NCBI RefSeq assembly: GCF_963921235.1
Contig: NC_086097.1
Coordinates: forward strand, 26,786,001 to 26,850,000
DNA: 64,000 nucleotides
Direction of reading: 5' to 3'
Origin: Mobula hypostoma
Taxonomy: Eukaryota
The notes beneath the pieces are model-generated. The model worked only from the letters and a program-made list of their open reading frames with translations, was not told the DNA's origin and searched no databases. Below are positions 1 to 46,251 of the stretch, in pieces; the stretch's first letter is position 1, and the number at the start of each line of letters is the position of its first letter. Position numbers and translations under genes: made by a program.

Positions 1-525
1 TACAGTTGTCACACTCCTGAGAATACAGGATCTAAATTTAGGCAGAAGCTAACACGCCACCTTCAACCTTTTCTCCCAAATGGATGCAAAAAATCTAAGT
101 GAGGGCTTATCCCCAGAATTTTAGATTATCATCCCTTCAATCAGGTGTTCACATTTTTTTTAATGGCATGAACCTCAACCATTAACAGAGGGATCCATGG
201 ACCTCAGGTTGGGAACCCCTATCTGAAACCAACAGTTCAAATTCTCTCACTCCTCTTCTCTTCATCTGCCCAGCACCCTCTGGTTCACACCGCTTTCCTT
301 TTCTCCTGTGGTTCACTTTCCCCTCCTATCAGATTCCTTCTTCAGCCCTTTACCTCTTCCACCCATCACCTCCCACCTTAGTTTATCCACTCTCCCTCAC
401 TTTCCTCTGCACCTGGTCGTACATTTCACCTACAAGAGAAAACCTGCAGATGCTGAAAATCTGAGCAACACACACAAAATGATGAAGGAACTCAGCAGGC
501 CAGGCAGCATCTATGGAAAAGAGTA

Positions 526-5435: not shown

Positions 5436-7033
5436 TATATCATCTTACTGTAATTTATAGTCTATTTTGTGTATTGCACTGTACCTCTGCCACAAAACAA
5501 CAGATTTCACAATATATATCAGTCTTAAAACACCTGATTCTGATTCAGTTCTGGAGTTGATGCATCCGAAGTGTTGAGTATGGGTAGCGGTTAGGCAGTT
5601 GCTGACATTGAAAGACTGCAAGCACCAGCCGAGCCAGACTAACAGCCAGCACTGTGTATATCTGGTTGCACGGCAACAGGCAACAGAAAGATAAATCCAT
5701 TGCACTTGGAGCTCCAGACGCACATTCATAAATTGGATGCGCTGACAGATGAGCAGGTTCCCCTGCACCTACTCTCCAAGGAGGCACTTACAGTGCAGGC
5801 CAGTAACTGTTAACAGATATGCAATGCAAAACCAAGATACAGTAAAAAATTTTGGTGCAGCTATTGCAACAAAAGGACTGAGATTTACATGTCATAGGCT
5901 CATGCAAGAGAACCATGTACATCTGTGTTGTTTATTCAGACCGCAGGGTTAGTGCTCTCTCATTTATCAATTGCCAACCTGCTCTGCTTTCACTGCGGTA
6001 TAACACCAGGACACAGCGCCTCACCAGAGCTTGCGTGCAGCCCTTAAAATTCTTCAAAAGGAAAGCCACTCTTCTCGATTTTAATCTGCCTCAAGTATGC
6101 CCTTGCTCACAAGAACAGCAATGTCTTCAAAGAGAACGGTCATAACCAGCAATAAATCCTCAGGGGGAATGCCACTTCAACCTCATTAAATGCCTTTAAT
6201 ACCCGTTTGAACACTTCAGCTCAGCTGCAGATTGCAAACAAGAGTTTTAGCCATATTCTCACCACAGAAATTGTACAGAATGGGAAACTCTTATTTACTC
6301 AAGGCCACACAAAAGTGCAGCATTTTTATTTAAATTTAAAGATTTTAAAGAGATCAGATTTTTCAAAAGGGCCAGTATTCAAATAATTTGAAGCATTTTG
6401 AGATCTCTGTTCCCAACAAGTAGGACCTGGATTGTGCAGGTCATACAGAGGGTTGTGACATCAATTACTGCTTCCTGATCACCTCTCCCTAAAGATCAGT
6501 CAACAAAGTCTGAATGATATCTCCTGTTACAGTTATTGACTGAAAAAACACCATTGTAATAGTGCTACAATCAAATCAAAAGGAAGGACAAGTCTTTCAC
6601 AACTACAGGTTAGTCTAATGCAGGCTACAAGCCAACAATGCTCTTAGACATGTAGTTGCTGTTCTAAAGTTGGAAAAGTGACAGCTAATCTATACCATAA
6701 ACAGCAAAAAATAATGGACTGATAACATGTTTTAGGATAATTAGGGCCAGGGCACCAGACAGAAACTTGGTCGGATTCTTCTTTGCCATTGTATTCTGGT
6801 ATCCCTCGTCCACTGAAAGAATCTGAAGGATGGCACCTATTGTGGACTGGTTGCAAACACAAAAAGCTGGAGGATTGCAGTGTGTCAGACATTATTTTTG
6901 GAGGAGAATGGACAGAAGACATTTCAGTTCATTCCAAACAACAGGAATTCTGCAAATGCTGGAAATTCAAGCAACACACATAAAAGTTGCTGGTGAATGC
7001 AGCAGGCCAGGCAGCATCTCTAGGAAGAGGTGC

Positions 7034-7069
7034 AGTCGACGTTTCAGGCCGAGACCCTTCGTCAGGACT
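7034..7069 (-). ncRNA. Minimal hammerhead ribozyme motif (inverted pLTR copy)
   Basis: Reverse complement of the 8369-8404 motif. Confidence 0.75.
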
Positions 7070-8368
7070 AACTGAAGGAAGAGTGAGTAAGGGATTTGAA
7101 AGTTGGAGGGGGAGGGGGAGATCCAAAATGATAGGAGAAGACAGGAGGGGGAGGGATGGAGCCAAGAGCTGGACAGGTGATAGGCAAAAGGGATACGAGA
7201 GGATCATGGGACAGGAGGTCTGGGAAGAAAGACAAGAGGGGGGGGACCCAGAGGATGGGCAAGGGGTATATTCAGAGGGGCAGAGGGAGAAAAAGGAGAG
7301 TGAGAGAAAGAATGTGTGTATAAAAATAAGTAACGGATGGGGTACGAGGGGGAGGTGGGGCATTAGCGGAAGTTAGAGAAGTCGATGTTCATGCCATCAG
7401 GTTGGAGGCTACCCAGACGGAATATAAGGTGTTGTTCCTCCAACCTGAGTGTGGCTTCATCTTTACAGTAGAGGAGGCCATGGATAGACATGTCAGAATG
7501 GGAATGGGATGTGGAATTAAAATGTGTGGCCACTGGGAGATCCTGCTTTCTCTGGCTTTCCCTCCCCCCCTCTCTCTGCATTCCGCAGGGATCGCTCCCT
7601 ACGCAACTCCCTTGTCCATTCGTACCCCCCATCCCTCCCCACTGATCTCCCTCCTGGCACTTATCCGTGTAAGCGGAACAAGTGCTACACATGCCCTTAT
7701 ACTTCCTCCCTTACCACCATTCAGGGCCCCAAACAGTCCTTCCAGGTGAGGCAACACTTCACCTGTGAGTCGACTGGGGTGATATACTGCGTCCGGTGCT
7801 CCCGATGTGGCCTTTTATATATTGGCGAGACCCGACGCAGACTGGGAGACGGCTTTGCTGAACATCTACGCTCTGTCCGCCAGAGAAAGCAGGATCTCCA
7901 GTGGCCACACATTTTAATTCCACATCCCATGCCCATTCTGACATGTCTATCCACGGCCTCCTCTACTGTAAAGATGAAGCCACACTCAGGTTGGAGAAAC
8001 AACACCTTATATTCCGTCTGGGTAGCCTCCAACCTGATGGCATGAACATCGACTTCTCTAACTTCCGCTAATGCCCCACCTCCCCCTCGTACCCCATCTG
8101 TTACTTATTTTTATACACACATTCTTTCTCTCACTCTCCTTTTTCTCCCTCTGTCCCTCTGAATATACCCGTTGCCCATCCTCTGGGTCCTGCCCCCCCT
8201 CCTTGTCTTTCTTCCTGGACCTCCTGTCCCATGATCCTCTCGTATCCCTTTTGCCTATCACCTGTCCAGCTCTTGGCTCCATCCCTCCCCCTCCTGTCTT
8301 CTCCTATCATTTTGGATCTCCCCCTCCCCCTCCAACTTTCAAATCCCTTACTCACTCTTCCTTCAGTT

Positions 8369-8404
8369 AGTCCTGACGAAGGGTCTCGGCCTGAAACGTC
8401 GACT
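8369..8404 (+). ncRNA. Minimal type I hammerhead ribozyme motif in PLE pLTR
   Basis: AGTC-CTGACGA-AGGGTCTCGGCCT-GAAAC-GTC-GACT: CUGANGA and GAAA core, GUC triplet, stem I AGTC/GACT. Confidence 0.75.
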
Positions 8405-8499
8405 GCACCTCTTCCTAGAGATGCTGCCTGGCCTGCTGTGTTCACCAGCAACTTTTATGTGTGTTGTCAGTTAATTCCAGATGACCCAATTCCCCACTA

Positions 8500-9035: not shown

Positions 9036-9420
9036 AATGTTGACTGTCCATTTCCCTCCATAAATGCTGTCTGACCTGTTGGGTGTCTCCAGCTGATTGC
9101 TTGCTCCAGATTCCAGCTTCTCCCTCATCTCTGATTATCAGATAAAGCAAAGCCCTTTGTGTTTCCCCTTCCCTGCCCTCTCCATCTGCCCATCACCCAC
9201 ACATTCCTTCCACCAGTTCCCCTCCCATTCCTTGCACAATCATCCGTCCTTCAACCCTTGATGATGTACATCTCCTCCCAGCTACTTATATCACCTTTCT
9301 CCATCTGTATCCACCTATAAGCTAACAACAGGAATTCTGCAGATGCTGGAAATTCAAGCAACACACATCAAAGTTGCTGGTGAATGCAGCAGGCCAGGCA
9401 GCATCTCTAGGAAGAGGTAC

Positions 9421-9456
9421 AGTCGACGTTTCAGGCTGAGACTCTTCGTCAGGACT
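9421..9456 (-). ncRNA. Minimal hammerhead ribozyme motif
   Basis: Reverse strand AGTC-CTGACGA-AGAGTCTCAGCCT-GAAAC-GTC-GACT; core intact, stem II variant. Confidence 0.65.
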
Positions 9457-10083
9457 AACTGAAGGAAGAGTTAGTAAGAGATTTGAAAGTGGGAGGGGGA
9501 GGGGGAGATCCAATGCTCCCGATGTGGCCTTCTATATATTGGCGAGACCCGACGCAGACTGGGAGACCGCTTTGCTGAACACCTATGCTCTGTCCGCCAG
9601 AGAAAGCAGGATCTCCCAGTGGCCACGCATTTTAATTCCACATCCCATTCCCATTCTGACATGTCTATTCACGGCCTCCTCTACTGTAAAGATGAAGCCA
9701 CACTCAGGTTGGAGGAACAACACCTTATATTCCGTCTGGGTAGCCTTCAACCTGATGGCATGAACATCGACTTCTCTAACTTCTGCTAATGCCCCACCTC
9801 CCCCTCGTACCCCATCCGTTATTTATTTTTATACACACATTCTTTCTCTCACTCTCCTTTTTCTCCCTCTGCCCCTCTGACTATACCCCTTGCCCATCCT
9901 CTGGTTCCCCCCCCCCGCCGTCTTTCTCCCTGGGCCTCCTGTCCCATGATCCTCTCATATCCCCTTTGCCTATCACCTGTCCAGCTCTTGGCTCCATCCC
10001 TCCCCCTCCTGTCTTCTCCTATCATTTTGGATCTCCTCCTCCCCCTCCCACTTTCAAATCTCTTACTAACTCTTCCTTCAGTT

Positions 10084-10119
10084 AGTCCTGACGAAGGGTC
10101 TCGGCCTGAAACGTCGACT
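10084..10119 (+). ncRNA. Minimal hammerhead ribozyme motif
   Basis: AGTC-CTGACGA-AGGGTCTCGGCCT-GAAAC-GTC-GACT. Confidence 0.75.
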
Positions 10120-10639
10120 GTTCCTCTTCCTAGAGATGCTGCCTGGCGTGCTGCGTTCACCAGCAACTTTGATGTGTGTTGCTCCACCTTTAAGGTGCTA
10201 GCTTTTGCTCACCCCTTCATTTTTATACAGTCTATCTCCCCCTTCCAGACTAAATGAGGGGTCTCAACCCAAAACGTCTGTAAGTGTCGGTATGGGGTTT
10301 GTTGGTTATCCCTGTGACTGCGAAGGTTTCCTCTGGGATGCTCCAGTTTCTTCCCACATTCCAAAGACATACGGATTAGGGTTAGTAACTTGTGGACAGG
10401 CTATGTTGGTGCTGGTACTGCAGGCTGCCCAGTACAAATCCTCACAGATTTGATTTGACAGAAATGGCCTATTTTACTGCATGCTTCGATGTCCATGTGA
10501 TAAGTAAAGCTCATCTTTATTTTGTCCCTCCATGGATGCTGCTGTTGAGTGCTTAGCGCATTTTGTGTTGCTCTAGATTCCAACATCTGGAGTCTCTTGC
10601 CTCATCTTTGATTGCATTTATATCAGTAGCGAGTGAGAG

Positions 10640-16794: not shown

Positions 16795-17275
16795 TCTGTG
16801 GTGGCCAGTGCTATCATGTTTGCTGTTGTGAGCTGGGGCAGCAGGCTGAGGGTGGCAGACACCAACAGAATCAACAAACTCATTCGTAAGGCCAGTGATG
16901 TTGTGGGGATGGAACTGGACTCTCTCACGGTGGTGTCTGAAAAGAGAATGCTGTCTAAGTTGCATGCCGTCTTGGTCAATGTCTCCCATCCACTACATAA
17001 TGTACCGGGTGGGCACAGGAGTACATTCAGCCAGAGACTCGTTCCACCGAGATGCAACACGGAGCGTCATAGGAAGTCATTCCTGCCTGTGGCCATCAAA
17101 CTTTACAACTCCTCCTTTGGAGGGTCAGACACCCTGAGCTAATAGGCTGGCCCTGGACTTATTTCCTGGCATTTACATATTACTAATTATTTATGGTTTT
17201 ATATTGCTTTATTTATACTCTACTCTTGGTTGGTACAACTGTAACGAAAACCATTTTCCCTCGGGATCAATAAAG
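16795..17275 (+). mobile_element. Rex1/Babar-type LINE 3' fragment, same family as 1830-2453
   Basis: Highly similar nucleotide sequence and ORF to 1874-2220. Confidence 0.8.
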
Positions 17276-17489
17276 TATGACTATGACCATGACCATGACC
17301 ATGTCTATGACTATGACCATGTCTATGACCATGACTACGACTACGTCTATGACCATGACCATGACTACGACCATGGCCATGTCTATGACCATGACCATGA
17401 CCATGACTACGACTATGTCTATGACCATGACCATGTCTATGACCATGACCATGTCTATGACCATGACTATGACTATGACTATGACCATG
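17276..17489 (+). repeat. Compound hexamer microsatellite (TATGAC/CATGAC/CATGTC/TACGAC)n, expanded LINE tail
   Basis: Directly follows the CAATAAAG of the LINE 3' end. Confidence 0.95.
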
Positions 17490-20400
17490 CACCACTGAAA
17501 ACTATAGAGGTGGTCAGGCTAGGTTTATTTTTGCTCGTCAGCCTGACTCAGAGCAGAGAGTACTTGTGGAGAACTCCTCACCCATCAAAGAACTCCACAT
17601 TCATTGTTCTTGGAATTAAAGTGCAAATTGCAGCTGTCTACCACTCCCTCCCACAGACAGTGGAGCGAGCAAAGGACAACAAAGCAAGTGTGCAAACAGG
17701 TTTTTCAAAAACGAGCAACAGGCAGGTACCAAGCCTTGTCCAACCCTCATGGGTACAATTAGAGAAGAGGGTTACAAGAAAAGGTCTTGCATGACCCCTG
17801 CTGTGAAGCTTCAGGGTGAAGCTCACAACGAGAACCATACAAACAAGCTACCCAGTCCCTAAGTCACGACGGGCACAGAACAACTCGCTGCTGACTCAGG
17901 ACTGTACTGTTGGATGCAACTCAAACCAACTCATCATAACACCACAGTGGTTGGCCTCGTCAAAGACAGCAGAGCGAGAGGAGGTAGAATAGTGTGAGCA
18001 CAACTCGAGTCTCAACGTGCACAAGGCTATAGAGCCTTTAGGAAGCTGCAGGCTGACCCCTCCTCACTGTACATAAATGGCTCCTCCGCGGAGAGGGTTC
18101 GGAGCAACAAATTTCTGGACAATCTCACCTTCTACAGTCAAGAAAGCACAACAGCGACTCCATTTCCTAAGGAGACTGAAGTGAGTGATGTTCCCCACTC
18201 CCACCCACTTCCCCTCCAATACTAACCAAATTTTACAGGAGCACCACTGACAGCGTCCTGACCAGCTGCATCACTGTCTGGTATGGGAATTGGGAGGCAT
18301 CTGAGGATCATGGGGGTCTCCCTTTCACCCGTCAGAGATATTCATCAGGAGCACTGTTTATAGGGTCGATCCCTCCCATCCAACCCACCATCTCTTTGTC
18401 CCCCTACCATCAGGCAGGAGGTACCATAGCATTTGGACAATGACTGTTAGGATGGGAAACAGCTTCTTGCCCCAGGCCTTGAGTCTACTGACCTCCCAGC
18501 TACCTCTCAGGTCTTGTCACATACGAGGTGCCAGCAGTGTTATACGGTTCACTTTTTAATCTTGTGGTGAAAACGCATTTTATGCTAAATGTCAATCTTG
18601 TGGAATATATGTTACTATTTGTTAATTTATTTGTGGTATTATTACTTTATGTATTGTGTGTGAGTTATACGTACTGTGTTGTGCACCTTGGCCCAGAAGC
18701 GCATCATTTCTTTCGGCTGTATACATGTGTATGGTTGAAAGACAGTAAACTTGATCTTGACAAGGTGAATGAATGGCCAGTCTTTTTCCCAGGGTAGTGG
18801 AGCCTTACACTAATGGGCACAGAATTAAAGGCAAGAAGGGAAAGATTTAAACAGGACCCAAGGAGGGTCTTTTCCCACTCATAGACACAAGCTTCCAGAC
18901 GAAGCAGTAGAGACTTGCTTTGCAATGTTTCAAAGACATTCAGACAGGTACATGGATAGGAAAGGTTTTGAGAGATCTGGGCCAAAGGCAGACAAAGGGG
19001 AATTGGACAGCATGGATGAGTTGAGCAGAAGGGGCTGTATCCGTGCTCTAAGGATAAAGATTAAAGATCAGATTTATTTCTCACACATACTTTGAAACAT
19101 GCAGTGAAATGTATCGTTTGTGTCAACGACAGACACACTCCGAGGATGTGCTGGGGGACAGCTCGCAAGTGTCACAGTGTTTCTGGCACCAACATAGCAA
19201 GCCCTCAATTTACTAACCCTAACTTGTATGCTTTTGGAATGAGGGAGGAAACTGGAGCACCTGGAGAGATTCACAGAGTCACAGGTACAAATTCCTTCAG
19301 AATCAGTTTTAATATAACCAGCACTTGTTGTGAAATTTGTTATCTTAACAGCAGCAGTACAATGCAATACATGATAATATAGAGAAAAAGTAAATTAATT
19401 ACAGTAATTATATATATGTATATTAAATAATTAAATTAAAAAGTGTGCAAAAACAGAAATGATAAATGTTAGAGTGAGTTTTTGGGTAGATGATTCATTT
19501 ACACTTAACTGACTCTGGCCACCAGTCTTCTGTTTGACAAAGTACTGTGGATTGAGTTCATAACAATGCATTTCCTAAAAGCTGTGAATGTCGGAATACT
19601 AGCCAGATGCTGCGGATGGAAGAGTGAAGTTTACAGGTAGCTTCGAAGACAGCATTATCTATACTTTATAAATATTAATTGTCTTCTATGTTAGCACGTA
19701 AAATACCAAATAAACGTATTGTGGATTTAACTTGCATTCCTAAAGGCTGTGGATACCAACCCAGACATGTTGGCGTCGGGAGGAAAGGATGAAGTCAGAA
19801 GGTGTGATGTTTTATATGTAGCTTCAAGAGAAAGCATAGTCTATGCATTATCTATAACTTTGTAAATAGGAATTGTCCTTTGTGTTTAGCAAATAAATAT
19901 CGAGCCCACATTGGGCTAGCAGAACTTTCCACCAACAGTGTCTCTGTCCGTATGATGCCTGCTGTACCTTGTTGTGTCGAACAAAGGTGCTGCTTTGTAT
20001 CTACCAGTAACTGTGTCTCTCCAGTGATTTCATCCACGCCACAACAATAAAAATGAGGTAGTTTTCATGGTTTCAATGTCCATTTAGCAATTGGATGGCA
20101 GAGGGGAAGAAGCTGTTCCTGAATTGCTGAGTGTGTGCCTTCAGGTTTCTGTACCTCCTCCCTGACGGTAACAACGAGAAGGCACATCCTGGGTGATGGG
20201 GTCCTTCATGATGGACGCCACCTTCCTGAGGCATCGCTCCTTGAAGATGTCTTGGATACTATGGAGGCTAGTACCCCGATGGAGCCGACTAATTCTACAA
20301 CTTTCGATCCTGTGAGTAGCCACCCACACCCCCAGCCCCATACCAGACGGTGATGCAGCCTGTGGCTTACAATCAACGGCAGGAATTGAACCCCGATTTC

Positions 20401-27769: not shown

Positions 27770-28025
27770 ACGGGAGCTTAGAGGTTAGTGTGACGCTTTA
27801 CAGCTCAGGGTTCGATTCCCACTGCTGTCTGTAAGGAATTTCTACGTTTTCCCCGTGACCGCGTGGTTCTCCTCTGGGTGCTGTGGTTTTCTCCCACTGT
27901 CCAAAGACATGCGGGTGAGGGTTTTTAAGTTGTAGGCATTCTACGTTGGCATCAGAAGAGTGGTGACACTTGCAGGCTGCCCCCGGCACATCTTTAACAC
28001 AAACAATGCACTTCACTGGATGTTT
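27770..28025 (+). mobile_element. tRNA-derived SINE-like repeat (further copies near 19070-19290, 26830-27140, 36335-36635, 39080-39360, 40210-40500, 40800-41070)
   Basis: B-box-like GGTTCGATTCCC followed by a core TCCCCGTGACCGCGTGG...TTTCTCCCAC...CCAAAGAC that recurs across the window. Confidence 0.65.
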
Positions 28026-28136
28026 CAAATTTCTAAGGGGGGCATAGCCAGTGGGAGCTAATCCCACAGGCCTGTATCACTTTAAACCTTCCCTTTGCAT
28101 GTACCTGTATGTAAGGGGTTTCTTCTTTCATGTTAC

Positions 28137-28175
28137 TGCGAGAGGTCCTGGCTTCAAATCCCGGACGAGCCCCCA
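28137..28175 (+). other. 3' half of tRNA-Pro including CCA (read as an extended PBS on the minus strand)
   Basis: TGCGAGAGGTCCTGGCTTCAAATCCCGGACGAGCCCCCA, 37/39 match to the recalled vertebrate tRNA-Pro 3' half plus CCA; minus strand reads LTR...CTACA-TT-TGGGGGCTCGTCCGGGAT. Confidence 0.9.
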
Positions 28176-28873
28176 AATGTAGCCCCCTGGTAAGCCTCAG
28201 GCTCGCTCAACTTGCTTTCGTCTAGGGGGAGCAGCCTTCAGCCCCGCCAAACTGGGTAATCAAGTTTGCGTGGATGCTGTGTGATGTACCCCACCCCACC
28301 AAATAACAGACAATACACCATATGCGATTAAATGATTACACTTTATAGATCTTACTGGAACTACGTAATTAATAGTGATAAAATATAAAAGGAAAATAAA
28401 AGGCGTCAAACTTATCAAAGTTCAACCACTTTGTGCACAACCATTCCTGCAGACACAAAAACCCAATCCAGATACAAACAGTCACATTGCTCCCAAACAG
28501 TAAACTTTATGCCCTGTTCCACAGGCACTACATAGGCCAACCTATCTGGGAGATCCTCCGAGACCTCTATAACCCCTCACCTAAGCCCCTCAGGCTCGGA
28601 CACTACTGGGGATACCTCCGGTCTGCTTGCCAACTCCTCTCTCACCATGCCCCCATTGCAACTCGGAGCCCCCGTCCTGTGTCCAGGGCCCCGCTTCTTT
28701 TCCTCAGGGTCCTGCTGTAACCCAGGCTGCCCACAGCTAGCCCTCCCCACTACACCTGACTCAGTGGGAGAAGGGCCAAAAGTCTCTTCCTCAATCAAGG
28801 GGAAGTTAGCGAAAGGCAGCATGTACCACACATCCAGCACATCATCCTTCGAATCCGTATTCTTCCTCATTCC

Positions 28874-29080
28874 CTCGATCGGTAGCTGCTGTTTGGTTTT
28901 CTCCAAACTAAAGCACTTAGCCTGGGCTGCCTCTGCATCCTCTTCAGCCTCCTGCAGTCGAGACGTCAGCTTCTTCTCTGATTCCTCCAACTCCCGCCCC
29001 AGTCTCAGCAGTTCTGACCCACGCTTCATGTCCATCTCCATCGGGGACGCAATTACACCACCAGCTTCTTCCAATCTGTT
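28874..29080 (-). pseudogene. Captured sarcomeric myosin heavy-chain rod fragment
   Basis: NRLEEAGGVIASPMEMDMKRGSELLRLGRELEES-EKKLTSRLQEAEEDAEAAQAKCFSLEKTKQQLPIE resembles the MYH segments ERLEEAGGATS.QIEMNKKREAE..K.RRDLEEA and ELEEAKKKLAQRLQEAEE.VEAVNAKC.SLEKTK.RLQ.E. Confidence 0.8.
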
Positions 29081-29130
29081 CTGGATCGATTTTTTGAGGC
29101 TGAAGAGGCTGCAGAGGCAGCCCAAGCTAA

Positions 29131-29641
29131 AAGCTGATTTATACTTGTGCATCAACTCGATGCCGTAACCTACGCAAGAGACCTACGCGCGTTGTGAGCA
29201 TTTATACTTGTTCATTTGTGTGTCTGCGTTGCTCTGCAATTCGCGCACGTCACTCATGCGCACACACCTGCCCACGCAAGGCTTCATGGTCATGGTAGTC
29301 TTTCTAGGGGTAAACACGAAGCGAGCTTCTTTTTTCGTAAAAGTGAAATGTGTCCTCCATAATTTCGGAGGTCTGTAAAGCTTTACGGAAAGCATTGCAG
29401 CCAGAGTTCCTTCCCTGCCCTTCAGTCGCCCAATGGGAAGCTATTGCAGTGTAGGAGGAAAAGCGATGCTACCAAGCGGACCTGTCATAGTTGTTGCGGT
29501 CTGTGTTGCCGCGATGCGTAGTTACATTTTGGGAGAGGTGCGCGTCAGGCTATGGCGTAGGGATCCACGTAGGCTATGGGTAGGGTTCACGGCTATGCCG
29601 TATCTACTGTATCAAGTTGACGCAGAAGTATAAATCAGCCT
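29131..29641. mobile_element. PIF/Harbinger-like MITE
   Basis: TIR A(A/G)GCTGATTTATACTT(G/C)TGC(A/G)TCAACT; flanked by TAA and TTA; the empty site GCTAAGTGC is visible in the opposite arm (about 28913-28921). Confidence 0.8.
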
Positions 29642-30681
29642 TTAGTGCTTCAGTTTGGAGAAAATCAAACAGCAGCTACCGATCGAGGGAATGAGGAAGA
29701 ATATGGATTCGAAGGATGATGTACTGGATGTGTGGTACATGCTGCCTTTCACTAACTTCCCCTTGATTGAGGAACAGACTTCTGGCCCTTCTCCTACTGA
29801 GTCAGGTGTAGTGGGGAGGGCTAGCTGTGGGCAGCCTGGGTTACAGCAGGACCCGGAAGGAAAAGAAGTGGGGCCCTGGACATGGGACAGGGGGCTCCGA
29901 GTTGCAGTGGGAGCATGAGTGAGGGATTGAGAGAGGATTTGGCAAGCAGACCGGAGGTATCCCCAGTAGTGTCCGAGCCTGACGGTCTCGGAGGATTAGG
30001 AAACTCCCAGATAGGTTGGCCTATGTAGCCCCTGGGGAACAGGGCGTAAGGTCTACTGTTTGGGAGCAATGTGACTGTTTGTACCTGGATTGGGTTTTTG
30101 TGTCTGCAGGAATGGTGGTGCACAAAGTGGTTGAACTTTGTTAAGTTTGGTGCCTTTTATTTTCCTTTGATATTTTATCTCTATTAATTACATAGTTCTG
30201 GTAAGATCTATAAAGTGTAATCATTTAATCGCATATGGTGTATTGTCTGTTATTTGGTGGGGTGGGGTACATCACACAGCATCCACTCAAACTTGATTAC
30301 TAGCTTGGCGGGGCCAAAGGCTGCTCCCCCTAGACGAAAGCAAGTTGAGCGAGCCTGAGGCTCACCAGGGGGCTACATATACACATGTTTTAAATGTAGT
30401 AATTATACCCACCTAGCAGCTCATTTTATTTACCCATGACTTTTCTTCAAAAAACAAGCCCCTCTGGTCCCTTTTAATTCACTGCTCGTCTCCTTATCTT
30501 AAACCTAAGCTGCTTAGTTCTGGACTACCCTACTCTCTGGGAAAAACTGTGACTATTTACTTTAATGGCCCTTATGATTTCCTAAACCTTTGTAAGCTCA
30601 CCTCTCAACTTCCTAAACTCCTGGCATGTCTAGTCTCTCCGTATAGCCTGGCCTGCAGTCAGTGAATGACACAGCACCAAA

Positions 30682-31242: not shown

Positions 31243-31575
31243 CATTCGACCTTCACTGATCTGACTACCTGTAATCCAGTTCCTTTGATAATCCAGCACT
31301 GATTATGCTTCATGTGATCCTTCTGTAATTCGGGATTTTCACTAAACCGGCACTCCTCAGGTCCCAGTGGTGCCAGATTAGTGAAGGTTAGCTATTGCTT
31401 CATGTGATCCTTCTGTAATTCGGGATTTTCACTAAACCGGCACTCCTCAGGTCCCAGTGGTGCCAGATTAGTGAAGGTTAGCTATTGCTTCATGTGATCC
31501 TTCTGTAATTCGGCATTTTCACTAATCCGGCACTCCTCAGGTTCCAGTGGTGCCGGATTAGTGAAGGTCGACCTG
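31243..31575. mobile_element. Tc1/mariner-superfamily MITE with about 3 internal 90-bp tandem copies
   Basis: TA-CATTCGACCTTCACTGATC ... GATTAGTGAAGGTCGACCTG-TA; unit TGCTTCATGTGATCC... recurs at about 31306, 31396 and 31486. Confidence 0.75.
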
Positions 31576-41228: not shown

Positions 41229-44203
41229 GGTTTAGAAGAATGAGGATGGATTTCATTGGAAACCTATCAGATATTAAAAAGCCTAAAAAGAGTGGATGTT
41301 GAGAGGATGTTTCCAATAGTGGGGGACTCTAGGACTGCAGAGCACAGCCTCAGAATACAAGGATCTCCCTTAAGAACAGAGATGAAGAGGAATTTCCTTG
41401 GCCAGAGAGTGGTAAATCTGTGGAATTCATTGTTACAGACGGCAATTGAGGTCTAGTTGTTGGGTATATTCAAAGTGGAGGTTGATAGGTTCTTGATTAG
41501 TGAGAGTGTCGATGTTTATGGTGAGAAGGCAGGAGAATGGAATGGGGAGAGTTAATAAATCAGGCATGATTGAATGGTGGAACAGAGTTGATAGGTCAAA
41601 TGGCCTAATTCTGTTTTATGGTGTTACTGTGTACAACTTTGTATTGGTGAGATAGGAGAGATATGGTTAAACTGGTGAGAGTACAAGAAAGCTTTAAGGA
41701 TGAGGGAACTCATGGCATTATGGCAAGAGCTGGCTGGTTATAGGTAGATCTGGGTGACCAACACAGTACACCTCAGGGCTCTGAGCTTAGTCTCCATGCT
41801 CTGCTCTTTCGATAACCACAACTGTGTGGTTAAGCATTCCCAACACCATCTACAGAATTCACCAAGGGCGCCACTGTTATTGCCACAGTCTCAGATGGTG
41901 ACGAGGCAGTACACTGGAATAAGATAGATCAACTGGTTCAGTAGTATCGTGACAACAACCTTCCACTCAGTGCCAACAAGACCAAGGAATTGATTGTAGA
42001 CTTTAGGAAGGGCCAGTAGTGGAAACAGTATCAGATTCTCCAGAAGATCCATCTTGGGCCCAGCACTGAGATGCAACTATGAAGCATCTCCATTTTTTTA
42101 AAAGTAGGAGATTCAGCATGTTATTGAAGAGACTGAACCTCCTCCTACATTGGAAAGCAATCCAATTGATTACATCGTGAGCTGATATGGAAACTCCACT
42201 GCAGAGGAATGCCAGAGATGACCGAGTGATGTGCACACAGCCAGTTCCATCACTGTGCAGCTCTCTCCACCACTGAGGGCATCCGTGAAGAAGCAATGTC
42301 TCAGGAAGATGACATCTATGATCAGAGGCCCCCAGCATCCAAACCACACCCACTTCTTGTTACTGCTATCATGCAGAATTAGGTTTATTATCACAAATAT
42401 ATGCCGTGAAATTTGTTGTTTGGTAGCAGCAGTCCTGTGCAATACAAAAAATACTGTAAGTTACAAAGAGAAATATATTAAAAACGTAAATAAGTAGTGC
42501 AAGAGGAGAGCAAACAGTGAGGTCGAGTTCACGGTCTATTCAGAAATCTGATGGCGGAGGGGAAGATGGCTGTCCCTAAAATGTTTAGTGTGTGTCTTCA
42601 GGCTCTTGTATCTCCTCCCTAGTGGTACCAATGAGAGGAGGGTATGTCCTGGGTGATGGGGGTCCTAAACGATGGATGCCACCTTCTTGAGGCATCCCCT
42701 GTTGAAGATGCCCTTGATGGTGGGCAGGTGAGAGCCCATGCTGGAGGTGGCTGAGTTTACAACCTGCGGCAGCTTTTATCGACCCCGTGCTGTGGCATCT
42801 CCTTACTGGGCGGTGACGCGACCAGTCAGAATGCTCTCCACAGTACATCTGTAGGAACTTGGTAACATACCACATCTCCACAAACTCCTCACAAACACAA
42901 GAAAACCCAATGAAGTATAGCTGCTGGCGTGCCTTCTTCGTAACTGCATCAACACGTTGCGTCCAGGTCGGATCCTGAACACCCACAAGTTCAACAGCAG
43001 TTTCTTCACCACTGCCATCAAGTGGAAACGATCCACAAAGAACAGTGTAGTGTAGCACAGAACAGTTCCTTTGGCCCATGATGCAGTGCTGAACTAGTTA
43101 AACTAATCTCGTCTGCCATATCCCTCCATTCCCTGAACATTCATGTGCCCTTCCTAGAGCCTCTTAAATACCTATCATCTGCAAATACCATCCCTGGCAG
43201 TGTATTCCAGGCACCCACCAGTGTTTAAAAACTTACCCCACATCTGTGAAGTTGCCTCCTCTCACCTTGAACGCATTCCTTCTAATTTTGGACATTGTAA
43301 TCCTGGGGAAATGAAATCAGCTGTCTACTTTGTCCATGTCTGTTGTAACTTTATATAGTCTCCCCTTAGCCTTTGCCACTTGCGAGAAACCAACCTAAAT
43401 TTATCCAACCAAGAAAGAATACCAGCCCTGCTCCAGACTATTTCTTGCATTAGTGTTGATCTTATTTTGTGGCTTATTTTTGAGCACATGTAAATTACAT
43501 ATAATTTATGTTAATTTATGTTTGCAATTTACTGCGCTGCTGCTGAGAAACTCTGTCGCCGTATTCAGAATCAGAACCAGATTTATTATCACTGAAACAG
43601 GTTGTGAAATTTGGTGTTTTGCGGTAGCAGTACAGTGCAATATATCACATCGGGGGGCTAGAACCCATAATACAACTGGCAGAGTTTGCAACCCTCTGCA
43701 GCAGCCCGTCCATTCCCGACGCGATGAAACCAGTTCGAACGCTCTCCACGGTCCATCTGTAGACATTCGCTAGAGTCTTTAGTGACATACCAAATCTCCT
43801 CAAACTCTTGGTGCCAGCAAACGATTCCTTGGGCAACATCTTCCAGGGAGCAAATCCTTTAAATTATTTCAGTTTTTCTACGCCTTCTCCTTGTTTTTTT
43901 TTTGGTGTGTGTGTTATGGAAACTGTTGGTGCCTGCGATGTACAGCTTGGATCTCGATAGAAGGATCCAGTGTCGGGAAAGCTGCCTCGTGGAGATCAGA
44001 GGCGAGAACCCGATAAGGACCCGTGGAAAAACACATGCTGACCAGTGGAAAAAAAAACAAAGATTGGGTCATGAACGACTCCAGCCGGAAGCAGCGAGGA
44101 AGATTGAAGTATTGAGATGAAGGTGTTCGGACCCGGTCAGCAAGTGCTCTCGACAGAGGCTGCGTCCTAGGTCCGCCGCCAGGTCAGCGACGCTTGAAGA
44201 CTA

Positions 44204-45783
44204 TCAGCAATCGCTCCCAACAGAGGCCAGAGGGTCAGCAATCACTCCCAGAGGGCCAGAAATCACTCCCAGAGGGTCAGCAATCACTCCCAGAGGGCCA
44301 GCAATCACTCCCAGAGGGTCAGCAATCGCTCCCAACAGAGGCCAGAGGGTCAGCAATCACTCCCAGAGGGCCAGAAATCACTCCCAGAGGGTCAGCAATC
44401 ACTCCCAGAGGGCCAGCAATCACTCCCAGAGGGTCAGCAATCGCTCCCAACAGAGGCCAGAGGGTCAGCAATCACTCCCAGAGGGCCAGAAATCACTCCC
44501 AGAGGGTCAGCAATCACTCCCAGAGGGCCAGCAATCACTCCCAGAGGGTCAGCAATCGCTCCCAACAGAGGCCAGAGGGTCAGCAATCGCTCCAGAGGGC
44601 CAGCAATCACTCCCAGAGGGTCAGCAGTCGCTCCCAACAGAGGCCAGAGGGTCAGCAATCGCTCCAGAGGGCCAGCAATCACTCCCAGAGGGTCAGCAAT
44701 CACTCCCAGAGGGCCAGCAATCACTCCCAGAGGGCCAGCAATCACTCCCAGAGGGTCAGCAATCGCTCCCAACAGAGGCCAGAGGGTCAGCAATCACTCC
44801 CAGAGGGCCAGAAATCACTCCCAGAGGGCCAGCAATCACTCCCAGAGGGTCAGCAATCACTCCCAGAGGGCCAGCAATCACTCCCAGAGGGTCAGCAATC
44901 ACTCCCAGAGGGCCAGCAATCACTCCCAGAGGGTCAGCAATCGCTCCCAACAGAGGCCAGAGGGTCAGCAATCGCTCCAGAGGGCCAGCAATCACTCCCA
45001 GAGGGTCAGCAGTCGCTCCCAACAGAGGCCAGAGGGTCAGCAATCGCTCCAGAGGGCCAGCAATCACTCCCAGAGGGTCAGCAATCACTCCCAGAGGCCA
45101 GAGGGTCAGCAATCACTCCCAGAGGGCCAGAAATCACTCCCAGAGGGTCAGCAATCACTCCCAGAGGGCCAGCAATCACTCCCAGAGGGTCAGCAGTCGC
45201 TCCCAACAGAGGCCAGAGAGTCAGCAATCACTCCCAGAGGGCCAGCAATCACTCCCAGAGGGTCAGCAGTCGCTCCCAGAGGGTCAGCAGTCGCTCCCAA
45301 CAGAGGCCAGAGAGTTAGCAATCACTCCCAGAGGGCCAGAAATCACTCCCAGAGGGTCAGCAATCACTCCCAGAGGGCCAGAGGGTCAGCAATCGCTCCA
45401 GAGGGTCAGCAATCGCTCCAGAGGACCAGTGGGTCAGCAATTACTCACAGAGGGCCAGAGGGTCAGTAGTCGCTCCAGAGGGTCAGCAATCGCTCCAGAG
45501 GGCCAGAGGGTCAGCAATTACTCACAGAGGGCCAGAGGGTCAGCAGTCGCTCCCAGAGGGTCAGCAGTCGCTCCAGAGGGTCAGCAATCGCTCCAGAGGA
45601 CCAGTGGGTCAGCAATTACTCACAGAGGGCCAGAGGGTCAGTAGTCGCTCCCAGAGGGTCAGCAATCACTCCCAGAGGGCCAGAGGGTCAGCAGTCACTC
45701 CCAGAGGGTCAGCAATCACTCCCAGTGGGTCAGCAATTACTCACAGAGGGCCAGAGGGTCAGTGGGTCAGCAGTCGCTCCCAA
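44204..45783 (+). repeat. Minisatellite with a 21-bp core CAGCAATCACTCCCAGAGGG(T/C) and higher-order units
   Basis: Direct reading; a 115-bp higher-order unit starts at 44205, 44320 and 44435. Confidence 0.97.
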
Positions 45784-46251
45784 TGAAGGCCGTCGTTCGG
45801 ACCAGGCGTGAGTTCTGAGCGACAGAAGGACTGTTCAATGTTATGAGATTTATGTGACTGGACTGTGCTTTATATCAGTCTCCTTCAGTTTTACTTGGTA
45901 TTTTCTTTCTTGTGGCTGACTGGCGGGTGGGTGATTGTTACAGTTGCTGTTCTTTTTCTGCGAGGAGAGGTCAGGGATTGTTATTGATTTTTTTCTGCAG
46001 GGAGAAGGTGGGGGGGGGTTCTGGGGTCTGAGAGTTTTGTTTCTTTTACTTTCTCATGCGTACTTCTTGGCTATCTGGAGAAGACGAATATCAGAGGTGT
46101 ATTGTATATGCATACTTTGACAATAAGATGAATCTTGCACTTTGAAATATAGAAAATGGCGTACCTTATTTGTAGTTGCATCAATATATTGGGCCCAGAA
46201 TAGATCTTCAGAGAAGTTGACACACAGGTTCCCTTATCTATGAATTCAGAA

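Follow-up and report, generated by a model that had tools for sequence, protein, structure and literature searches.

A DNA copy of tRNA-Pro ending at position 38 within a rearranged Gypsy insertion: a probable relic of reverse transcription into the primer

A rearranged Gypsy insertion with inverted arms

The window, by which we mean the whole 64-kb stretch of DNA that was analysed, carries at 28110-30377 an insertion of 2,268 bp (Table 1). This is a rearranged Gypsy element with TG...CA ends, flanked by TGTA on the left and TATA on the right. A contig from organism D (record 9 of run X10) fitted the window over 27963-28110 and then went on with 315 letters unlike it; we read this contig as the empty site. 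At the left boundary, contig depth rose in four of four runs from 13.5-71.6 in the preceding bin to 21,556-44,110 in the bin 28105-28145, depth here not being a copy number. The opening 30 nt of the insertion aligned to the beginning of a solo LTR at 526-1138, which belongs to a related family (613 bp, TG...CA ends, perfect AGTA target duplication) and also has TGC at the corresponding place. An LTR start at TGTAGCCCC near 30024 had been considered as well and was dropped, as the solo LTR and the contigs put the LTR start elsewhere.

Table 1. Parts of the insertion and its flanks, in window coordinates
Feature	Position	Strand	Remarks
Possible target-site duplication of 4 bp, left copy	28106..28109	+	TGTA; 3 of 4 letters shared with the right copy
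Family LTR, nt 1-30, beginning with TG	28110..28139	+	last 3 nt (TGC) probably common to the tRNA copy
DNA copy of tRNA-Pro 38-76	28137..28175	+	37/39 match
2-nt spacer	28176..28177	-	TT on the minus strand
Left arm: LTR 3' part with CA end	28178..28441	-	contig loose ends at 28177/28178
Left arm: probable pol tail, joined directly to mid-LTR	28442..28882	-	without polypurine tract; presumably the integrase tail
Myosin-heavy-chain-derived segment carried by the family	28883..29098	-	E 2.7e-8 to myosin rod
Single-copy spacer between the arms, 144 nt	28952..29095		inside the myosin-derived segment
Right arm, start	29096..29130	+	microhomology of 3 nt (29096-29098) where the sequence turns
511-bp element with terminal inverted repeats of about 35 bp, TAA/TTA flanks	29131..29641	.	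right arm only; we take it to be Harbinger-like
Right arm: end of the myosin piece, pol tail, fusion at 30114/30115, 3' part of the LTR ending CA	29642..30377	+
Right copy of the possible target-site duplication	30378..30381	+	TATA

Two inverted arms, 28178-28951 and 29096-30377, differ by 44 mismatches in 757 aligned columns (5.8%). In both of them the pol tail is joined straight to about LTR nt 355, and both are without the polypurine tract (PPT) and the first ~350 nt of the LTR; no purine run of at least 7 nt was present in the 155-159 nt preceding the pol-tail/LTR fusion. Behind 28441 the standard LTR goes on differently, as seen in 48 contigs of run X9. We also compared the minority letters of the arms at 27 sites, from which 2 lying in a gap were left out and 3 were dropped where the left arm has the majority letter. 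Seven of the 22 remaining minority letters were common to both arms, as against about 2.4 expected, 3 of the 7 being near a gap. Because they have the same fusion and minority letters in common, the arms stem from a single template or from sister ones. Read along the minus strand, the insertion runs through the LTR end and the pol tail backwards, turns, passes the pol tail and the LTR end forwards, crosses the spacer and continues with the tRNA complement from 76 to 38 and with LTR nt 30 to 1. Folding of the arm centre was uninformative (z -0.18), and Pfam found no match on a 201-aa frame. Incidentally, the inverted duplication around the tRNA copy is absent from an earlier reading of this DNA made from the sequence only.

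Homologues of the family were found as gene models of Mobula, Hypanus and Hemitrygon, two of which have remnants of reverse transcriptase (RT). One relative, P0001, matched RVT_1 at E 1.3e-6, under the curated cut-off, and in the PDB its RT matches were limited to 4ol8 (RT/RNase H) and the Ty3 Gag-Pol 7q5b. A Ty3-type RT was present in the relatives only, the window copy having none, and a search with the pol tail returned no full-length polyprotein. What emerges is a defective Gypsy family of rays, and the window copy, with inverted partial arms in place of two direct LTRs around gag-pol, is a rearranged derivative of it. The myosin piece, at 28883-29098 and 29642-29675, consists of two rod fragments, about residues 1148-1185 and 1377-1424, which a deletion has brought together. 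The piece was high-copy in four of four runs and in four organisms, and it occurs in ray gene models; on these grounds we dropped the idea that it was captured in the present event. Family contigs fitted as far as 29098 (record 8 of run X1 and a loose end of run X10). It appears that several gene models of rays, named MYH16 or myosin-7B-like, are copies of the family element.

A copy of the primer tRNA that is not a working primer-binding site

The sequence-only reading had described next to the inverted LTR end, which begins at 28178, a TT spacer and a 39-nt match to tRNA-Pro with its CCA. This was upheld: 37 of the 39 letters at 28137-28175 (+) agree with mature tRNA-Pro from U38 to A76. The mismatches lie at tRNA position 50 (C to T, in a CpG) and position 53, and A58 is retained. 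The match is preceded by a C where the tRNA has G37, and the anticodon is absent. As comparison sequence we used letters 698-736 of metagenome locus L026, which by eye are the last 39 nt of human tRNA-Pro as printed in a passage of bioRxiv 10.64898/2026.08.12.744379; the human tRNA is also printed, without CCA, in PMC5159642. The probability of a chance match of 37 in 39 was about 2e-20 per site, and that of the stretch beyond 18 nt was 4e-10, or 2e-8 leaving out the shared TGC. ARAGORN reported no tRNA in the 64-kb window, and an Rfam search did not report the half-tRNA. The TT spacer also stands before the PBS (primer-binding site) of many retrovirus loci of the tRNA-Pro-primed comparison. 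CCA and natural spacer together point to a mature primer in place.

Where the earlier reading went wrong was in calling the match an extended PBS. A canonical PBS is complementary to about 18 nt of the tRNA 3' end and lies between the 5' LTR and the leader and gag. Here the match is 39 nt long and lies inside an inverted duplication, where a 3'-type LTR piece with the pol tail ahead of it comes before the match and an inverted LTR start comes after. It is not the working PBS of an intact element. All 24 tRNA-Pro-primed virus loci compared matched 18 nt plus 0-5, and a viral scan for the extended motif gave one locus, in the same record as L006, with 18+5 nt; a scan of prokaryote genomes gave none.

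Could the long match have been inherited, as the primer over-extension sequence of a subfamily, with rearrangement of this locus after its insertion? Lentiviruses and spumaviruses do keep such a sequence to about position 55, according to PMC13191261, and the two metagenome loci described below might likewise be family features. However, the two family copies found among the contigs listed have 18-22 nt of match and not 39: in record 25 of run X9 the LTR end is followed by 22 nt of match, as far as 28154, and then by 40 loose letters, and a joint in run X5 holds an 18-nt PBS-like piece followed by non-tRNA letters. Moreover, the surroundings of the match are not those of a leader or gag. An inherited long match is very unlikely.

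Contigs of other copies break at 28177/28178 with flanks unlike the window (62-81 contigs per row, agreement 0.36-0.38). The junction between tRNA copy and LTR start (28134-28154) was bridged by none of the contigs listed, record 1 of run X1 covering 27966-28134. This speaks for an assembly error at the junction, or for a repair event that copied a tRNA-Pro gene into a broken PBS. Against both stand the two aged differences in the copy, which are in line with the 5.8% between the arms, and the same end point in unrelated genomes, which neither route predicts, so that we regard them as extremely improbable. With high confidence, 28137-28175 is best read as the fossil of an RT that read into its own primer.

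The end point at position 38

The copy ends at tRNA position 38, blurred to 38-41 by the TGC, which, as seen through the related LTR only, probably belongs to both the tRNA copy and the LTR start. The CCA, the retained natural spacer and the fusion to an LTR start in the opposite orientation support what the sequence-only reading had proposed, that is, a read of the primer past A58 followed by a template jump. The kept A58 suggests either an unmethylated primer or an error-free passage, which the sequence cannot tell apart.

A stall near m1G37 had also been proposed, with the TGC microhomology as its alternative. The stall stands as far as position is concerned, as the position fits and recurs in two of two unrelated loci; the methyl group is supposed rather than seen. 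Microhomology is no true alternative, for the two can both hold. We nevertheless considered that the read-through was real and its end point incidental, the RT having left the tRNA wherever microhomology allowed, in keeping with a TGC probably present in both partners. Yet the first 355 nt of the related LTR offered a microhomology of at least 3 nt at 21 of 21 tRNA positions 38-58, so microhomology does not pick out position 38. One was offered at 8 of the 21 positions by the 30 nt of the element itself, and a longer one, of 5-6 nt, was available at position 51. Given in addition that the two unrelated loci end at 38 and 39, an incidental end point is unlikely.

These two loci came from a scan of a metagenome collection for tRNA-Pro 41-76 with CCA, which is blind to shorter copies and ahead of which position 37/38 had been singled out. 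The scan gave two loci, L026 and L027, neither of which is a tRNA gene or a whole tRNA. In L026 the match starts from U38 and is followed by a 3-nt spacer and TG; in L027 it starts from G39 and is followed by a 2-nt spacer and TG. Outside the tRNA piece, neither showed likeness to the window. With end points distributed uniformly from 41 to 1, both would fall at 38-39 with P 0.002 and at 38-41 with P 0.01 (n=2). An LTR nature is suggested for both loci, for which we found no family copies or ORFs.

Two further observations concern these loci. In L026, the 102 nt behind the spacer (740-841) run up to the contig end and show TG...CA and AATAAA on the minus strand; this is either a very short LTR or a contig break. 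In L027, a perfect 19-nt inverted repeat (253-271 and 387-405) flanks the tRNA piece, which is preceded by an AATAAA-bearing stretch ending in CA. From this repeat and this stretch, L027 may be inverted in a similar way to the window insertion.

Several published results bear on the nature of the block. According to passages of PMC8062790, human tRNA-Pro-UGG has m1G37, AMV RT is blocked by m1G, and yeast Pro-UGG carries m1G37 at about 53%. In the same source, human tRNA-Pro-AGG gave no G37 signal and stoichiometry ranged from 14 to 80% across tRNAs, both of which count against the m1G37 reading. For zebrafish, a passage of bioRxiv 10.1101/2024.01.30.575011 speaks of 'many tRNA clusters' and leaves Pro unnamed. 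HIV-1 RT gives a minor product that ends at the position-37 modification (PMC13191261), and tRNA-Pro has m1A58 (PMC11251516). Taken together, m1G37 is probably the cause of the stop at 38.

The same sequence would be predicted if the event were the same and the primer were a 3' tRNA half, cut or clipped in the anticodon loop, off the end of which the RT ran. Such a half could account for ends at both 38 and 39, and RNase L cleaves tRNA-Pro(UGG) within its anticodon loop (PMC13191261). However, if the cut lay 5' of position 37, the half would retain G37 and would presumably stop the RT at the modification again, and HTLV-1 primes with full-length tRNA-Pro, namely a UGG isodecoder (PMC11251516). 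We consider a tRNA-half primer rather unlikely, and prefer a stall on the intact primer.

Our literature search, whose scope mostly excluded older subscription papers, found no description of genomic copies of a primer with an end at m1G37. PMC5371799 and PMC10275265 had little bearing on the primer copy.

Proposed origin, related systems and other repeats

On balance, the insertion probably results from one aberrant reverse transcript of the myosin-carrying Gypsy that stalled before methylated G37 in its primer and was integrated. The order of steps given here is one that we infer. tRNA-Pro would have primed the minus strand normally, which gave the right end. The PPT and the first ~350 nt of the LTR would have been skipped or already missing, leaving no normal plus-strand start. 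The minus strand would then have turned onto a complementary minus strand, either its own, as a hairpin, or a co-packaged one, and run back to the LTR end, through the spacer and into the attached tRNA primer, past A58, to stop at U38 before methylated G37. Its last 3 nt would have paired with LTR nt 28-30 of another template, and copying from there to the LTR start would have provided a second usable end. If the deletion arose in the same round, the skipped RNA, with PPT and LTR start, would have been at hand as acceptor. Integrase would have inserted the product, and the element with terminal inverted repeats would have jumped in later.

One finding counts against the simplest form of this path. 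A simple one-strand hairpin gives the orientation of the 144-nt spacer only if the palindrome later lost its centre by deletion; either such a loss or a strand switch onto a second, co-packaged strand would account for it. That the possible target-site duplication agrees in 3 of 4 letters is a further point against the proposed origin. We give the full fold-back path about an even chance. More tentatively, with a probability somewhat below even, the locus suggests that a transcript without PPT might still integrate by way of fold-back, primer read-through and one jump.

Colicelli and Goff in 1986, and Pulsinelli and Temin in 1991, reportedly described tRNA inserts at 2-LTR circle junctions and PBS-bounded deletions. 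Such inserts have in common with the present locus a tRNA copied beside an LTR end by faulty primer handling. At a 2-LTR circle junction, however, LTR end and LTR start point the same way; in the present locus their orientations are opposed, and the product sits in a chromosome. In yeast, Ty1 cDNA is captured at double-strand breaks, and there too reverse-transcription intermediates become fixed in a chromosome. In contrast to captured Ty1 cDNA, the present insertion has the two LTR termini together with a near target duplication, and for this reason integrase fits better than repair.

A close counterpart is the over-extended plus-strand strong-stop product P5 of HIV-1, which ends at ms2t6A37 of tRNA-Lys3 (PMC13191261; PMC8599865). 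In both cases, LTR end, spacer and primer are copied past A58 to the base before position 37, which is modified in tRNA-Lys3 and probably so here. P5, however, is a minor in vitro product incapable of strand transfer (PMC13191261), whereas the present molecule involves tRNA-Pro and a Gypsy element, was apparently not PPT-primed, was rescued by a jump and became fixed in the germ line. It has the LTR end, the spacer and the mature primer copied past A58 with an end before 37; in place of a PPT start and one whole LTR, its strand holds the pol tail and the myosin piece. The insertion works like P5, then, and is not a strict member of the class. The over-extension sequence of lentiviruses and spumaviruses likewise involves tRNA complementarity beyond the 18-nt PBS, but it is inherited and functional (PMC13191261), unlike the 39 nt here, which are apparently one copy and lie outside a working leader. 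Partly comparable are Helenus TRIMs, which contain tRNA-derived sequence and whose animal families are Gypsy-dependent with 4-bp target-site duplications (Kojima 2024, PMC10886601). In Helenus, the tRNA-like piece lies inside every LTR of the family, whereas here it lies outside the LTR as a primer copy; in a self-search, neither the right arm nor the solo LTR contained it.

A position-37 stop is known in vitro for HIV-1, and the genomic fossil is a variant of that. The tightness of the m1A58 stop in vivo and the fate of molecules that pass it have been studied almost only in HIV-1, in vitro or in mutant cells. We tentatively propose, as a conjecture somewhat short of probable, that LTR-attached primer copies form a fossil record of tRNA modifications, their ends falling preferentially at the base ahead of the first modification after A58 that blocks the Watson-Crick face. 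If so, ends should lie at 38-39 for m1G37-bearing tRNA-Pro and deeper in the tRNA where base 37 of the primer is readable, and end points would tell the priming isoacceptor of each family and its modification in past germ lines. A pile-up of genomic end points at 38-39 could be sought by counting on existing assemblies, for any primer tRNA, and would provide indirect evidence on germ-line tRNA modification in species without tRNA sequencing. Should the peak be absent, the locus would be a one-off copying error of small interest.

Other repeats were noticed in the window. Two copies of one repeat lie at 6937-8466 and 9324-10183, with inverted and direct arms at 93-98%. By eye, a peptide near 7770-7890 looks like what we take to be the GIY-YIG nuclease of Penelope-type elements; Pfam gave no match on the frame 7521-8042. 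At 44116-45786 there is a tandem array of 21- and 31-nt units, in which each of the three plus frames stays open over 400-507 codons. Shorter tandem arrays are present at 17234-17525 and 31306-31568, with 12/18-nt units and about three 90-nt units.
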